Positions 20,259-31,543 of a stretch of 64,000 nt of DNA are shown here, one piece after another (the first letter of the stretch is position 1; every line of letters begins with the position of its first letter). This stretch comes from an uncultured delta proteobacterium (GTDB lineage Bacteria; Desulfobacterota; Binatia; Binatales; Binataceae). The stretch spans positions 256,001-320,000 of the forward strand of contig CAWCDG010000002.1 of assembly GCA_963794325.1 (NCBI GenBank), in the 5' to 3' direction. Below the pieces are notes generated by a model. That model had not been told where the DNA came from, ran no database searches, and worked only from the letters and a program-made list of their open reading frames with translations. A program made the position numbers and the translations under genes.

Positions 20259-21536
20259 ATGAGCATTACAACACCGCTGTCCGAGCGCATCGCCGCAGCA
20301 ATTCCGCGCGGCGTCAGCGTGCCGATTCCAATCCTTGCCCATCATGCATCGGGCGCTGAAATCTGGGACGCCGACGGCCGCCGCTATATCGACTTCGGCG
20401 GCGGTATCTCGGTACTCAACGTTGGCCATCGCCATCCGCACGTGATGGCAGCGGTGAATGCTCAGCTCGACGCGTTCACTCACACCTGCTTCGGCGTGAC
20501 GCCGTACGAATCGTACATCAAGCTCGCCGAGCGAATGAATCAGCTCGCGCCGATCGCCACGCCGAAGAAGAGTATCTTTCTCACGACGGGCGCCGAGGCA
20601 GTCGAGAACGCCGTCAAAATTGCGCGTCATGCGACCGGCCGCTCGGCAATCATTTCGTTCACCGGCGGATTTCACGGCCGCACACTCATGGCGCTCGCGC
20701 TCACCGGCAAAATAAATCCATACAAAGCCGGCTTCGGACCATTTCCCGCCGACACGTTTCACGCGCCGTTCCCCGATGCTTATCGAGGCGGCAGCACCGA
20801 GAAGAGTCTCGCTGCGCTCGAGATGCTGTTCAAATCGTCGGTCGAGCCGTCGCGCATTGCGGCGATTATCATCGAGCCGGTGCAAGGGGAGGGCGGCTTC
20901 AACGTCGCGCCATTCGAGTTTCTTCGCGAGCTGCGCGCGCTGTGCGATCGGCACGGCATCATTTTCATTGCCGACGAAATCCAGACTGGCTTCGGCCGCA
21001 CCGGCCGGATGTTTGCGGTCGAGCACGCCGGCGTCGAGCCCGATCTCATCACAGTCGCGAAAAGCCTCGCCGGTGGATTCCCACTCTCTGGTGTCATCGG
21101 CCGCGCCGCTATCATGGACAGCGTTGCGCCTGGCGGCCTCGGCGGCACGTTCGCCGGTAATCCAGTGTCATGCGCGGCAGCCCTCGCCGTGCTCGACGTA
21201 TTCCGCGACGAGCATGTGCTGGCGCGCGCCGAAAAGCAGGGCGTCCTCGTGCGTGCGCGTCTCGACGTGATGCGCGAACGATTCCCTGTCATCGGCGATG
21301 TGCGCGGCCTCGGTGCGATGCTCGCGATCGAGCTCGTGCGCAACCGCGTTTCCAGAGAGCCAGCCCCCGAACTCGCCAGCCGGATGGCGAAGCTCGCTTC
21401 CGAGCGCGGCCTGATCCTGCTCACCGCCGGAATCTACGGGAACGTGATTCGAATCCTGGCGCCACTGACCGCCTCGCCCGAATTGATGGACGAAGGCCTG
21501 ACAATTCTGGAGCAATCGATCGCCGACTTACGCTAG
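20259..21536 (+). CDS. gabT: 4-aminobutyrate aminotransferase (class III PLP)
   Basis: IDFGGGISVLNVGH, TGAEAVENAVK, EPVQGEGG, DEIQTGFGRTG and AKSLAGG motifs. Confidence 0.92.
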   Translation: MSITTPLSERIAAAIPRGVSVPIPILAHHASGAEIWDADGRRYIDFGGGISVLNVGHRHPHVMAAVNAQLDAFTHTCFGVTPYESYIKLAERMNQLAPIATPKKSIFLTTGAEAVENAVKIARHATGRSAIISFTGGFHGRTLMALALTGKINPYKAGFGPFPADTFHAPFPDAYRGGSTEKSLAALEMLFKSSVEPSRIAAIIIEPVQGEGGFNVAPFEFLRELRALCDRHGIIFIADEIQTGFGRTGRMFAVEHAGVEPDLITVAKSLAGGFPLSGVIGRAAIMDSVAPGGLGGTFAGNPVSCAAALAVLDVFRDEHVLARAEKQGVLVRARLDVMRERFPVIGDVRGLGAMLAIELVRNRVSREPAPELASRMAKLASERGLILLTAGIYGNVIRILAPLTASPELMDEGLTILEQSIADLR

Positions 21537-21569
21537 CACTGCAAGCCCAATTCGTATGAAATATGGGCG

Positions 21570-21698
21570 ATGAGGCTCCCCGACGTTATCGGAGTCGGGC
21601 CCCCGCGCCCCGGCTCGACCGGGCTCTACAACGCGCTGCGCGAGTCCGTGGACCTGCCCAGCGGGATCAAGGAGAGTCAGTTCTTCAAGGATCGATGA
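21570..21698 (+). pseudogene. Truncated sulfotransferase N-terminus (42 aa)
   Basis: MRLPDVIGVGPPRPGSTGLYNALRESVDLPSGIKESQFFKDR*; close nucleotide similarity to 22713-22865; its TGA overlaps the next ATG. Confidence 0.75.
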
Positions 21699-22591
21699 GC
21701 CAGAAGGAGAAATACCGGCTGCCCGAGTTTCTCGGAGTCGGTCCGCCGCGCACCGGCACAACCTGGCTGCATAACGTCCTCCAGGGCCATGTCGATCTGC
21801 CCTACGGCATTAAGGAGACGGGATTTTTCTCCGTCTACTACGACAAAGGCATCGATTGGTACGCGCGCCATTTTCGTTACGCGACTGGCGAGCGCCGAGT
21901 CGGCGAGATTTCCTGCTACTTCTTCGAACCGGAGGCGCGCGAGCGCATCAAGACCCACATCCCCAATTGCAAGATCATCACGACGATGCGCGATCCGGTC
22001 GATCGCCTGTATTCGATGTACAAGCTGTTGCGGCATAACGCAGTCGCGCGTCGCGGCACGTTCGAGGAGACTTTGAACCTGTGGCCATCGATGGCAAAGG
22101 GCAACCGTTACGCGTCAAATCTTCAGGGATGGTTCGACCAGTTCGGCCGGGAAAATGTCCTGGTCACGATGTACGATGAATTGCGCTCGGACCCGCAGCA
22201 GTACTTGAATCGGATCACCGGATTCATCGGCATCGATCGAATCGCGCTCTCCGACCGTCCCCGCATACGCGACGACGTGTACGCCTTCTACCGTGCGCCC
22301 AGGAACCGCAAACTCGCGCGCAATGCGTGGCGGGTGAAGTCCTGGCTCAAGGGACGCCAGGCGTATGGCGCAATCAACTTGCTCGAACGCGCAGGCGTAT
22401 GGCAATTCTGCGGAGGGCGCGGAGAGCCATTTCCACAGCTCACACCCGAGCAGGATGCGCGGTTGCGGGAGCGCCTCCTACCCGAAATCGGAGCCCTCGA
22501 AGAATTGCTCATGCTCGATCTCTCCGTCTGGAAGAAACCGCGCGCGACGCGCGTTGCCGAAGATCCCTTGTCGCGACTAACCAACAAATGA
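21695..22591 (+). CDS. PAPS-dependent sulfotransferase 1
   Basis: 5'-PSB GPPRTGTTWL; KETGFF..YDKGIDWY; 3'-PB RDPVDRLYS. Confidence 0.9.
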   Translation: MSQKEKYRLPEFLGVGPPRTGTTWLHNVLQGHVDLPYGIKETGFFSVYYDKGIDWYARHFRYATGERRVGEISCYFFEPEARERIKTHIPNCKIITTMRDPVDRLYSMYKLLRHNAVARRGTFEETLNLWPSMAKGNRYASNLQGWFDQFGRENVLVTMYDELRSDPQQYLNRITGFIGIDRIALSDRPRIRDDVYAFYRAPRNRKLARNAWRVKSWLKGRQAYGAINLLERAGVWQFCGGRGEPFPQLTPEQDARLRERLLPEIGALEELLMLDLSVWKKPRATRVAEDPLSRLTNK

Positions 22592-29295: not shown

Positions 29296-29302
29296 AGACA
29301 GA

Positions 29303-30544
29303 TTAGCTGGCGCGGGAAGTTCGTGCCTTCGGCTTTGCCTCAGTCTCCTCCGCGTTAGAACCCGATATCGAGCCGTAGCCGATTGCGTTGCTGGTGTTGC
29401 GCCAGTTTACCAGGGCCGCGATGCGGTCTTTTTTAACGCGATGTTTGTAGTGCTCGACTTTGTCGAGGACGGAGTCGATCAACGTGTCTGACAGGAGCCG
29501 CGGCTTGAGGCCCAGATCGATCAGCTTGGTATGCTTCGCGTTGTAATAATGAACTTCGGCTTCGACCCGCGGGTCCGCGATGTGTTGGATCTCGACATTG
29601 CGGCCTTTGTGCTTCGCCGCAGCCTGAATCAGGTCAGCTAGCTGTCCCACCGAGAACTGCTCAGTGAACTGGTTGAATACGCGGTACTCGCCCGGCTTGG
29701 CGGGCTTCTCGATCGCAATTTCGATACATCGCATCGTATCGCGGATGTTCAGGTAGCCGCGCGTCTGCCCGCCCTTGCCGTGAACCGTCAGCGGATGGCC
29801 GATCGCGGCCTCGATGCAGAATCGATTGAGCACCGTGCCCCAGATTCCGTCGTAGTCGAAACGCGTCGCGAGCCGTTCGTCGAGCATCGTCTCGTCGGTC
29901 TCGATCCCATACACGACGCCCTGGTTGAGATCGGTCGCGCGGATGCCCCAGATTTTGCACGCGAAGTGGATATTGTGCGAGTCGTGAACCTTGGACAGGT
30001 GATAGAACGAACCCGGCTGCTTTGGATACGGGAGCGTGTCGGTGCGTCCATTGTGCGTGATCTCGATAAAGCCTTCTTCGATATCGATATTGGGCGTCCC
30101 GTACTCGCCCATCGTGCCGAGCTTGACCAGGTGGCATTCGGGCACGTGCTCGCGAATCGCGTAGACGGCGTTGAGCGTGCCGACCAGATTATTAACCTGA
30201 GTGAGGACCGAGTGCCGCCGATCGATCATCGAAAATGGCGCGCTGCGCTGCTCGCCGTAGTGCACGATCGCGTCGGGCTTGAACTCGCGCACCACGCCGC
30301 TGATGAAGCCGAAGTCGGTCAAATCGCCGACCGCGATTTGAATCGACTTGCCGCTGGTCTCGCGCCATGCGGCGACCCGATCGTGCAGCGATGCGATCGG
30401 AATGAGGCTCTCGGTGCCCCCTTCGAGGTCCCACAGACGCCGGCTGAAGTTATCCACCACACAGACTTCGTAGCCGCGCTTCGACAAGTACATCGCCTGC
30501 GGCCATCCGAGGTATCCGTCCCCACCAGTTACAATCACCCGCAT
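29303..30544 (-). CDS. sqdB: UDP-sulfoquinovose synthase
   Basis: [39 protein letters not shown] and [10 protein letters not shown] are SQD1/SqdB signatures. Confidence 0.95.
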
Positions 30545-30580
30545 TGAAAATGCCTCCAACAGCAGAGATACGCCGCCTAT

Positions 30581-31543
30581 TTATTCCTGATATGCGCGAT
30601 CAGATCGAGCGCGCCGCGAGCTTCCGCCCGACAGGCTTTGCGCCAGCCGATGCGGCAGCCATGTTCGCATCCATCGCAAATAGTTCTTGAACCGATACGG
30701 ATCGACCCTGATCGCGCGAGCGAATGCAGCGCGAGCGCGCGGACCATCGCCGTCGCGCATCGCCTTCAGCCCGATCGTCGCGAGTATACTTCGCGGGGCC
30801 CGAGCGCGCGCATCGACCAGTGGCGCCGCAGAAACGCCGTAGCGCTCCTGCAGATAAGCTTCGAAGACGTGCAGCGCTTTCGAGTAATCGGGCAGCCGCT
30901 TGAGCTGCTTCGGAAACCATGCGAAACGCCACGTGATCAGCGGCTCGTCAATGTAGCCGAACGGGCCCTGCTCGCGCATCTTGATCCAGAAATCCACGTC
31001 CTCGAAGCGGAAGCTCGCGCCCTTCAAGGCGTCGCGATAGCCACCGCACGCATCGTAAGCGGTGCGGCGCACCAGGGCAGCGCTTGGCATTATCGGCCAC
31101 AGTTTCGTCAGGAGTTCGTTCAGCGAGGGGGCATGATCGAAACCGTCGCCGACCAGGGAAGTGTCGAGCGGCACGCCTTCGCTGTCGGCGAGCGCGCAGT
31201 TGCAGTAGACGAGGGAGAGAGCAGGGTCGGCATCGAGGGCGGCGACGCTACACTCGAGGAATTGCGGCGCCCAGACGTCGTCGGCGTCGAGGAAGGCTAG
31301 ATACTCGCCTGACGAATGCCGCGCGCCATTGTTGCGTCCGGCGGCAGGGCCGCTATTGGACTGTTCGAGGAGCAAAACTCGGCCGCCGAACCGCTTCATG
31401 ATTGCGAGAGTGTCGTCGGCTGAGCCATCGTCGACGCAGATAATTTCGAAATCCTGGAAAGTCTGACTGATGACGCTGTCCACGGTGCCGGCGATAGTCG
31501 CGGCGGCATTGTAGGCAGGAATAATTACGGAAACGCGAGGCAC
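30581..31543 (-). CDS. GT2 glycosyltransferase
   Basis: VSVIIPAYN, DDGSAD and FLDADD; shares LWPIMPS with the 28211 gene. Confidence 0.92.
   Translation of the reverse strand: MPRVSVIIPAYNAAATIAGTVDSVISQTFQDFEIICVDDGSADDTLAIMKRFGGRVLLLEQSNSGPAAGRNNGARHSSGEYLAFLDADDVWAPQFLECSVAALDADPALSLVYCNCALADSEGVPLDTSLVGDGFDHAPSLNELLTKLWPIMPSAALVRRTAYDACGGYRDALKGASFRFEDVDFWIKMREQGPFGYIDEPLITWRFAWFPKQLKRLPDYSKALHVFEAYLQERYGVSAAPLVDARARAPRSILATIGLKAMRDGDGPRARAAFARAIRVDPYRFKNYLRWMRTWLPHRLAQSLSGGSSRRARSDRAYQE

Follow-up and report, generated by a model that had tools for sequence, protein, structure and literature searches.

A 64,000-nucleotide stretch of DNA from an uncultured delta proteobacterium (assembly GCA_963794325.1, contig CAWCDG010000002.1, positions 256,001 to 320,000; hereafter, the window) contains an island of five sulfotransferase genes (ST1 to ST5), four glycosyltransferase genes of family GT2 (GT2a to GT2d), and sqdB, the predicted gene for UDP-sulfoquinovose synthase. 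The feature is real, lineage-specific, and unusual. Its gene content and its variation among relatives suggest a lineage-specific, cassette-variable island of cytoplasmic enzymes that probably build and tailor a polyanionic surface glycan. As judged from gene order and protein trees, sqdB is an optional cassette tied to one subclade of GT2d, and a sister subclade replaces it in the islands that lack sqdB.

The genome containing the window (G000) is a 4.45-Mb assembly that is 85% complete. Homologues at 71-85% identity carry the source name Candidatus Binatus, and the genus is probably Ca. Binatus; a public metagenome-assembled genome (MAG) with the same island (locus L040) is filed as an uncultured delta proteobacterium. 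The DNA sequencing runs listed for positions 21600-31500 of the window come from soil and peat. Our literature search found nothing linking Binatota or Binatia to sulfotransferases or sulfoquinovose.

Distribution of the island and of the sqdB cassette

Sulfotransferases of the island family were sought in 40 genomes, 24 from the same genus and 16 from elsewhere in the class. All 24 congeners contain them, and seven of the 16 other genomes gave weak single matches. Across the phylum, sampled evenly with 301 genomes, arrays of these genes are observed only in the family of the window (three genera), with single distant matches elsewhere. The loci fetched and mapped by tblastn comprise 24 from 22 genomes of the genus, two from sister genera, and one from the public MAG. 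Two unpublished genomes, G019 and G024, are counted only in the genus tallies of sulfotransferases, sqdB, and the GT28 gene considered below; without them, these tallies are 22/22, 14/22, and 14/22, respectively.

In most of the fetched loci, chrA, alone or together with gabT, flanks one side of the array, and a sigma-54 activator gene flanks the other. The content of the island varies from one to five sulfotransferases and from one to four GT2 genes, sometimes with a GT4 or methyltransferase gene. In loci L035 (G021:C35; G021 is 64% complete) and L020 (G006:C4), several sulfotransferase and GT2 genes have frameshifts or in-frame stops, which points to decay or low assembly quality.

Of the 24 congeners, 14 have sqdB; outside the genus, it was found in a single genome, G040, which belongs to another family. 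The complete sqdB-positive islands, 14 in number, come from 13 genomes, including that of the window, and from the public MAG. In all of them, ST4-ST5-(GT2a/b)-GT2c converge on sqdB-GT2d, and the same layout is found on split contigs in G011 and G020. A gene with its best match to GT2c flanks sqdB in each of the 14 islands, and most of these genes belong to a 13-row GT2c clade. Hence the linkage of the two halves of the island, claimed in a preliminary description of the window made from its sequence, holds in every complete sqdB-positive island. Conservation of the cluster as a whole is partial: the sulfotransferases recur in all congeners, and the sqdB half is missing from 10 of 24. Since these 10 genomes retain the array, sulfoquinovose is an optional component and not, as had been proposed, the centre of the pathway.

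A further link between the halves is provided by GT2d. In the GT2 tree (61 rows, quick IQ-TREE run; L038 and L039 were left out, and one row is an artefactual frameshift open reading frame (ORF)), a GT2d superclade with SH-aLRT support of 100 unites 14 rows that adjoin sqdB on the same strand (the Sq subclade) and 11 rows from sqdB-less islands (the noSq subclade). Each of 25 complete islands contains exactly one member of this superclade. In the sqdB-less islands, the noSq GT2d either falls within the sulfotransferase operon or closes it. An example is provided by G006, where ST2-ST1-ST4-ST5-GT2a-GT2c are arranged as in the window and the series ends with a noSq GT2d on the plus strand, with no sqdB. 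The sqdB state changes at least three times on the tree of the flanking sigma-54 activator (19 rows) and at least four times on that of ChrA (21 rows), and one well-supported clade of a flank tree mixes both states; these are small single-gene trees, and the numbers are rough. The swap of cassettes ties sqdB, via GT2d, to the same pathway as the sulfotransferase/GT2 operon, and on the level of sequence comparison it is good evidence for sqdB feeding that pathway.

The sulfotransferase tree (85 rows, after two rows shorter than 230 residues were dropped) contains a 20-row ST4 clade with members from both sqdB-positive and sqdB-less islands. The 16-row ST5 clade has a row from each of the 14 complete sqdB-positive loci, and its other two rows are from L020 and L122, where no sqdB is known. 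Sulfotransferase clades never seen in sqdB-positive islands are present in 10 of the 11 sqdB-less ones. One locus, L037, is a piece of G011 whose sqdB is on another contig and is hence tagged noSq in this tree. As the relatives are not independent, no statistics were drawn from the clade distribution.

A bolder and rather unlikely interpretation is that the island allows one position of a glycosaminoglycan-like, heavily sulfated surface glycan to be built by either of two chemistries. In that case, sqdB and the Sq GT2d would install beta-sulfoquinovose, a hydrolysis-resistant C-sulfonate mimic of glucose-6-sulfate. The noSq GT2d, together with the sulfotransferase clades restricted to noSq islands, would instead install a neutral hexose and then an O-sulfate.

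Enzymes encoded by the island

The gene map of the preliminary description, with its five sulfotransferases, GT2 genes, and sqdB, was borne out by the ORF listing and Pfam scans (Table 1). A plus-strand run begins with gabT and continues with the five sulfotransferases (21563-26317) and three GT2 genes (26325-29134); the gaps between genes from ST1 to GT2c range from -8 to 93 bp. On the minus strand, GT2d (31543-30581) is followed after 21 bp by sqdB (30559-29303), and this pair converges on the plus run, in agreement with the earlier observation that three GT2 genes converge on sqdB and a fourth, related GT2 (window 21563-31543). By their arrangement, ST1-ST5 and the three soluble GT2 genes are predicted to form one tightly packed plus-strand operon, and GT2d-sqdB a convergent two-gene operon. 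All island proteins are soluble by hydropathy, with a maximum Kyte-Doolittle 19-residue mean of at most 1.26. In ST1, the internal Met45 at 21695 fits the paralogues better and is the likely true start.

Table 1. Features of the island and its flanks, in window coordinates
Feature	Position	Strand	Evidence
gabT (4-aminobutyrate transaminase), left flank, probably outside the pathway	19974..21536	+	TIGR00700
ST1, PAPS-type carbohydrate sulfotransferase (predicted)	21563..22591	+	PF00685 E 2.2e-19; paralogue motifs; orthologues in only some islands
ST2, sulfotransferase paralogue	22685..23635	+	PF00685 E 1.7e-17; Asp for putative catalytic Glu (K-D-T vs K-E-T)
ST3, sulfotransferase paralogue, rarest type	23632..24519	+	PF00685 E 1.4e-16; 3-row clade: window, L037, L040 only
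ST4, sulfotransferase, core member in nearly all islands	24535..25404	+	PF00685 E 1.5e-17
ST5, most divergent sulfotransferase paralogue, co-varies with sqdB cassette	25409..26317	+	PF00685 E 5.4e-18
GT2a, soluble inverting GT-A glycosyltransferase (predicted), C-terminal helical tail	26325..27227	+	PF00535 E 8e-34; no transmembrane segment
GT2b, GT2a paralogue	27244..28200	+	PF00535 E 5.3e-36; tail TPR matches below cut-off
GT2c, core GT2, last gene of plus-strand operon, converges on sqdB	28193..29134	+	PF00535 E 1.7e-31
Convergent spacer with REP-like 21-nt inverted repeat	29135..29294		arm sequence at 6 genomic places
SqdB, UDP-sulfoquinovose synthase (predicted)	29303..30559	-	SQD1 1i24 E 7e-177 over 383 aa
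GT2d (Sq subclade), candidate inverting sulfoquinovosyltransferase, first gene of GT2d-sqdB operon	30581..31543	-	PF00535 E 1.6e-34
Paired REP/MITE-like hairpins between GT2d and sigma-54 activator gene	31650..31884		41-nt inverted repeat, 88% complementary
Sigma-54 activator without receiver domain, right flank	31988..33172	-	PF00158 E 1.2e-63; flanks island in most relatives
PAPS, 3'-phosphoadenosine 5'-phosphosulfate; REP, repetitive extragenic palindrome; MITE, miniature inverted-repeat transposable element.

The window SqdB aligns with Arabidopsis SQD1 (1i24_A) at E 7.1e-177, residues 6-388 matching residues 12-394 of the chain. The catalytic triad of SQD1 is given as Thr145, Tyr182, and Lys186 in PMC4388408. 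The corresponding residues of SqdB, T149, Y186, and K190, and the motif G12-xx-G15-xx-G18 are invariant in the alignment of homologues, and they fall in the string GTMGEYGTP and a second string of 10 residues, both identical in the alignment with SQD1. The NCBIfam equivalog model NF041015 scored 499 bits, below its cut-off of 575; because it passes its own cut-off in only one of 14 control genomes, we read the model as narrow and do not count it against the assignment. By these sequence features, SqdB appears to be a bona fide SQD1 orthologue and UDP-sulfoquinovose synthase. It is encoded by a single gene in the 4.45-Mb genome, and its nearest relatives in other phyla are 61-68% identical.

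The canonical partner, SqdX, was searched for with a query taken from the fetched cyanobacterial sqdB loci. No orthologue was found in G000 at its 85% completeness, the best match having 91 bits and 30% identity; as a yardstick, two genuine sqdB-linked GT4 proteins from different phyla share 350 bits and 46% identity. Nor was an orthologue found in five sqdB-positive relatives (94-100% complete), four of which had no match above 77 bits. The GT8 family, to which SqdD belongs, was not found in G000, G007, or G016.

The four GT2 proteins are paralogues with 38-65% identity and no hydrophobic segment, and all pass PF00535 (110-125 bits against a cut-off of 23.3). GT2a and GT2b share 64.5% identity, and GT2d is 38-42% identical to the GT2 proteins of the sulfotransferase operon. 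Each ends at its C terminus in a helical tail some 100 residues long (helices 221-319 in the GT2d model). In GT2d, D86 and D88 of the DxD motif are invariant and E181-D182 are conserved across 46 sequences. The best sequence match of GT2d is the glucuronic acid (GlcA)-transferase domain of K4CP, the K4 chondroitin polymerase of E. coli (E 1e-29). In a structure search with the AlphaFold2 model (mean predicted local distance difference test score (pLDDT) of 88.5), the same domain had Z 26.6 and a root-mean-square deviation of 2.3 over 230 residues, and WrtF had Z 25; heparosan synthase, the PglI-like AvpGT, and TarS/TarP were also near. The folds nearest to the modelled GT2d are those of enzymes for polysaccharide, O-antigen, lipid-linked oligosaccharide, and teichoic acid glycosylation.

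The Sq subclade differs from the noSq subclade and from GT2a-c by Y169-R170-D171, the insert G175-A176-S177, and R179. These residues sit in a loop directly before the conserved E181-D182; in the model, the loop has lower confidence and precedes the helix 181-192. Two new arginines near the presumed catalytic base would fit a change to an anionic donor sugar. No other glycosyltransferase co-varies perfectly with sqdB, and GT2d is hence the likely sulfoquinovose transferase. GT2 is an inverting family; hence the product would be a beta-sulfoquinoside and not the alpha linkage of sulfoquinovosyl diacylglycerol (SQDG). Sulfoquinovose is beta-linked in the N-glycan of Sulfolobus acidocaldarius. 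An independent pairing is observed in G040, where a 31%-identical GT2 gene overlaps the sqdB start codon by 4 bp. At this locus (L024:9210-13373), a gene for a 649-aa sulfatase-family protein (PF00884) precedes the GT2 gene, and no sulfotransferases are found nearby.

All five sulfotransferases pass PF00685, the family of PAPS-dependent sulfotransferases, scoring 58-70 bits where the cut-off is 22 (E 1.4e-16 to 2.2e-19). They have no internal stops, and the paralogues are 45-65% identical to ST1. The description of five intact paralogues with an Arg-type loop and a heparan-sulfate-like pattern was confirmed by Pfam and alignment. The 5'-phosphosulfate-binding (5'-PSB) loop G-x-G-P-x-R-[TS]-G-[TS]-T-W, with Arg at the usual Lys position, and the 3'-phosphate-binding (3'-PB) motif R-x-P-V-[DE]-[RH]-x-[YF]-S-x-Y are present in all of them. 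A profile aligns their K-[ED]-x...KGI-x-WY block onto the heparan-sulfate enzymes NDST1 and 3-OST-3, so that Glu (four proteins) or Asp (ST2) falls at the position of E in EEIQFF of NDST1 and AEPHFF of 3-OST-3. We take the conserved Glu, loop, and 3'-phosphate residues to be the catalytic ones. Among solved structures, the five-sequence profile has its best match in 3rnl (E 8.5e-25), a bacterial sulfotransferase with no assigned function, followed by the NDST1 sulfotransferase domain and 3-OST-3 (E about 1e-19), with cytosolic SULTs far behind (1e-7 or worse). By these features, the sulfotransferases appear intact and of the carbohydrate type. A whole-genome scan found exactly five Sulfotransfer_1 matches in the 4.45 Mb, all contiguous in the island; together with the single sqdB, this means that the grouping is not due to chance.

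The donors could be supplied by genes elsewhere in the genome. The check for PAPS-synthesis genes suggested earlier was positive: adenylyl-sulfate kinase (cysC; 270 bits against a cut-off of 244) and sulfate adenylyltransferase (sat) genes are adjacent on contig C7, away from the island, and a PAPS/APS (adenosine 5'-phosphosulfate) reductase gene (cysH) on contig C4 could supply sulfite. By gene content, the genome can make both PAPS and sulfite. In the cysC-sat locus, the only one for PAPS synthesis in the genome, the sat match just after the kinase gene is split over two frames (C7:235186-235810; L001:2034-3189), by a frameshift or an assembly error.

Acceptor, assembly, and alternative products

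With soluble island enzymes and PAPS confined to the cytoplasm, the chemistry would be expected on the cytoplasmic side, where a lipid-anchored intermediate would be the simplest substrate. In the proposed scheme, SqdB would combine UDP-glucose with sulfite, giving UDP-sulfoquinovose, GT2d of the Sq type would transfer sulfoquinovose in beta linkage onto an acceptor oligosaccharide extended by GT2a-c, and ST1-5 would then add position-specific O-sulfates from PAPS. All steps would take place at the cytoplasmic face, the lipid-anchored intermediate being the core of lipopolysaccharide (LPS), an O-unit, or another undecaprenyl-linked glycan. Initiation, flipping, and export would be encoded elsewhere, with Wzy_C, GT4, GT9, and WaaA genes on contig C4 as candidates, and the product would be a polyanionic surface glycan differing in structure between species.

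Window genes for assembly were looked for by Pfam scans of 17, 18, and 25 larger ORFs, which covered about 12 kb on either side of the island and both window ends. Among these ORFs, there were none for SqdX or other GT4, GT8, Wzx/Wzy, an ABC exporter, or PAPS synthesis, so the absence of sqdX, SqdD, Wzx/Wzy, exporter, and PAPS-synthesis genes noted earlier holds within that set; nor did they include LPS core genes. Away from the island, contigs C4 and C7 of the genome carry WaaA, three GT9, and three Wzy_C genes, and C4 has GT4-rich regions. In G210, from a sister genus (L121:5353-8057), the array lies beside an HTH_3 regulator gene, a gene of the WaaP/Kdo-kinase family (52.7 bits), and a methyltransferase gene; the kinase-family neighbour, seen next to the array only in this genome, is a single weak lead that hints toward the LPS core.

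Several observations weigh against a surface glycan built in this way. Neither the island nor the scanned islands of relatives contain a gene for an initiating (phosphoglycosyl)transferase, a flippase, a polymerase, a ligase, or an exporter, and the acceptor is therefore a guess. The earlier proposal that the GT2 enzymes build the oligosaccharide is not supported for the whole chain; genes for initiation and export are absent from the island. The donor specificity proposed for GT2d is based on its co-occurrence with sqdB and on the loop change. Sulfotransferase/GT2 arrays occur without sqdB (10 of 24 congeners) and sqdB-GT2 without sulfotransferases (G040), and the two modules can work apart. 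The linkage comes from one genus and one chromosomal site and is largely inherited, not independent. Finally, the search for sqdX and sqdD proposed in the preliminary description was negative for G000, but G003 has one full-length GT4 protein (169 bits, 31% identity to SqdX), and GT8 exceeds the cut-off in G003 and G004 and is marginal in G018. Given these genes, some species may have another user of sulfoquinovose.

The separate occurrence of the modules, in both directions, also favours an unlikely alternative, in which two unrelated functions meet at a recombination hot spot. Here GT2d-sqdB, or sqdB with a lipid glycosyltransferase such as the GT28 protein encoded at 7172-8548, would make a phosphate-sparing sulfoquinovosyl membrane lipid, and the sulfotransferase/GT2 operon would decorate another glycan. 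In 80 sqdB loci sampled from other phyla and public genomes, sqdB is nearly always beside a gene for a lipid-type or membrane glycosyltransferase (SqdX in 34, mostly from cyanobacteria; GT21 in 20; GT28-like in 1), and only the Binatus MAG has sulfotransferases and these GT2 genes beside it. The window itself encodes the diglucosyl-diacylglycerol-synthase-like GT28, found in 11 of the 14 sqdB-positive congeners and 25% identical over half its length to a GT28-like gene beside sqdB in one Terriglobia MAG. However, this gene is missing from the sqdB-positive G003 and G004 (95-96% complete) and present in the sqdB-less G006, G009, and G022. In total, 14 of the 24 congeners have it, the match often being interrupted by an in-frame stop, and it tracks sqdB only partly (both genes in 11 genomes, sqdB only in 3, GT28 only in 3); as a sulfoquinovose transferase it was rejected. 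GT2d, for its part, has no hydrophobic segment and is a paralogue of the GT2 proteins of the sulfotransferase operon. Its sister subclade lies inside that operon in every sqdB-less island, which argues that the GT2d step belongs to the sulfotransferase pathway. An inverting GT2 cannot make canonical alpha-SQDG.

A separate observation from the same sample concerns Acidobacteriota MAGs, where sqdB is flanked by a GT21 gene (HpnI/ceramide-glucosyltransferase-like) in 20 of the 80 loci, with no SqdX there. Seventeen loci have PMT_2 (an ArnT-like GT-C) and 16 have an asparagine-synthase-like gene, and ArnC-like GT2 or LPG_synthase_TM is sometimes found (e.g., L044, L046, L047, L052, L056, L082, L097, L104, L109, and L112, with sqdB at about 7001-8160). 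These GT21-sqdB loci look like a second, undescribed non-SQDG use of UDP-sulfoquinovose.

The tails of the GT2 proteins raise the quite improbable alternative of a protein or peptide acceptor, such as a pilin, an S-layer or PEP-CTERM-type protein, or a ribosomal peptide. The TPR-like tails would hold the polypeptide, and the sulfotransferases would then sulfate its glycan. All four GT2 proteins share the helical domain, GT2b scoring weakly as TPR, although the TPR matches fall below the Pfam cut-offs. The lack of lipid-carrier and export genes in the island and the Tad pilus genes at both window ends fit such an acceptor, and archaeal Agl3 supplies sulfoquinovose to protein N-glycans, according to PMC4388408. 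On the other hand, the islands examined encode no precursor peptide, oligosaccharyltransferase, or dedicated protease/exporter. The nearest structures are those of polysaccharide, teichoic acid, and lipid-linked glycan enzymes, GalNAc-T being lower (Z 19 against 23-27), and matches to the SunS family are only generic (E 5e-6).

It is very unlikely that the product is a soluble or secreted small sulfated oligosaccharide or glycoside, a signal or natural product comparable to sulfated Nod factors, instead of a surface polymer. Such a product would agree with an island that holds only soluble transferases, varies highly between species, and in some relatives gains a methyltransferase or GT4. Yet the islands examined contain no scaffold enzyme (NodC-like, polyketide or nonribosomal peptide synthase, or terpene enzyme), acyltransferase, or exporter, and tandem paralogue arrays with cassette swaps at a fixed locus are more typical of surface-glycan diversity.

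Surroundings, related systems, and significance

Several neighbouring elements were considered as parts of the system and rejected. The gabT product passes the TIGR00700 equivalog for GABA (4-aminobutyrate) transaminase (586.7 bits against a cut-off of 506.65; the match begins near residue 100, the ORF being over-extended at its 5' end), and the gene is missing from several islands. Control by the adjacent sigma-54 activator was not supported by promoter scans: the motif TGGCAC-N5-TTGC with at most two mismatches gave 49 matches against 64 expected, none well placed near the island, and a sigma-70 and terminator scan gave nothing above shuffled sequences. The inverted repeats bracketing sqdB-GT2d are not cassette ends and represent dispersed REP/MITE-like hairpins with 63 and 6 genomic copies; the 63-copy hairpin, CCTCTCC...GGAGAGG, often occurs in pairs about 200 bp apart.

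Tad/Flp pilus genes occupy both window ends (TadE/TadG-like, 102-2389; RcpC/CpaB and secretin, 60074-63098). To the left of the island are an HTH_3 gene (4795-5298), a cluster at 5372-9313 with a PhyH-type dioxygenase, an LpxH-like metallophosphoesterase, the UgtP/diglucosyl-diacylglycerol-synthase-like GT28, and a family-less ORF, and a DUF1329 (LolA-like) gene (16518-17942) present in one to three tandem copies depending on the species (L021, L026, L031, L120, and L122). To the right, a gene-poor stretch (33200-37200) holds a PIN-domain (VapC-like) ORF at 34123-34763 with an overlapping 76-aa ORF before it, probably a toxin-antitoxin pair.

The closest described system is the xss cluster for synechan in Synechocystis PCC 6803. 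Like the island, it combines PAPS-type sulfotransferases (PF00685/PF13469) with multiple glycosyltransferases; sulfation is presumed to occur on a lipid-linked repeat unit at the cytoplasmic face, and an outer-membrane export component is encoded elsewhere (PMC8205485). The xss cluster has two sulfotransferases, eight glycosyltransferases, Wzx, Wzy, a polysaccharide copolymerase (PCP), and own regulators, whereas the island has five sulfotransferases, four GT2, and none of the flippase, polymerase, or PCP. Unlike xss, the island carries sqdB and belongs to a non-phototrophic soil lineage. In the synechan paper, sulfated extracellular polysaccharides are described as unique to cyanobacteria among bacteria (PMC8205485).

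The SQDG pathway combines SqdB/SQD1 with SqdX/SQD2 (GT4), or SqdB with SqdD (GT8) (PMC13436972). The island shares its first enzyme, as the alignment to SQD1 over 383 residues indicates, but the partner is a soluble inverting GT2, which would be unable to form the alpha linkage of SQDG, and no SqdX orthologue was found in the genome of the window. The agl1-agl4 locus of S. acidocaldarius resembles the island in that the UDP-sulfoquinovose synthase Agl3 is encoded beside a glycosyltransferase predicted to act on a glycan, not a lipid (PMC4388408). It differs in being archaeal and protein-linked, with a predicted transferase, Agl1, that is membrane-bound and with no sulfotransferases, whereas the island has the soluble GT2d and five sulfotransferases. 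With heparan-sulfate NDST/3-OST and 3rnl, the island sulfotransferases share the aligned 5'-PSB loop, catalytic Glu position, and YxKGxxWY, but they have Arg for the PSB Lys and low identity (about 25%). Compared with K4CP, the island GT2 proteins are single-domain and not bifunctional polymerases, and the island has no UDP-GlcA or amino-sugar genes. The likeness to heparan-sulfate and K4 enzymes identifies the class of enzyme but does not show the product to be a glycosaminoglycan.

Sulfated polysaccharides are regarded as rare in bacteria, and sulfoquinovose is treated almost entirely as the SQDG head group of phototrophs. If the interpretation of the island as a source of a polyanionic surface glycan is true, an abundant uncultured soil lineage makes sulfoquinovose-containing polyanionic glycans and would be a non-phototrophic source for the soil sulfoquinovose and organosulfur cycle. 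GT2d would then be a soluble inverting sulfoquinovosyltransferase, and ST1-5 would be a bacterial set of soluble heparan-sulfate-type enzymes differing in specificity; both kinds of enzymes are sought for enzymatic synthesis of sulfated glycans. The Sq and noSq GT2d proteins would form a natural experiment on donor specificity. Should the less probable two-chemistry interpretation be true, the glycan would be the first from bacteria in which sulfate esters occur together with a sulfonate, GT2d would be the first sulfoquinovosyltransferase of family GT2, and soil sulfoquinovose would have a new biological source.

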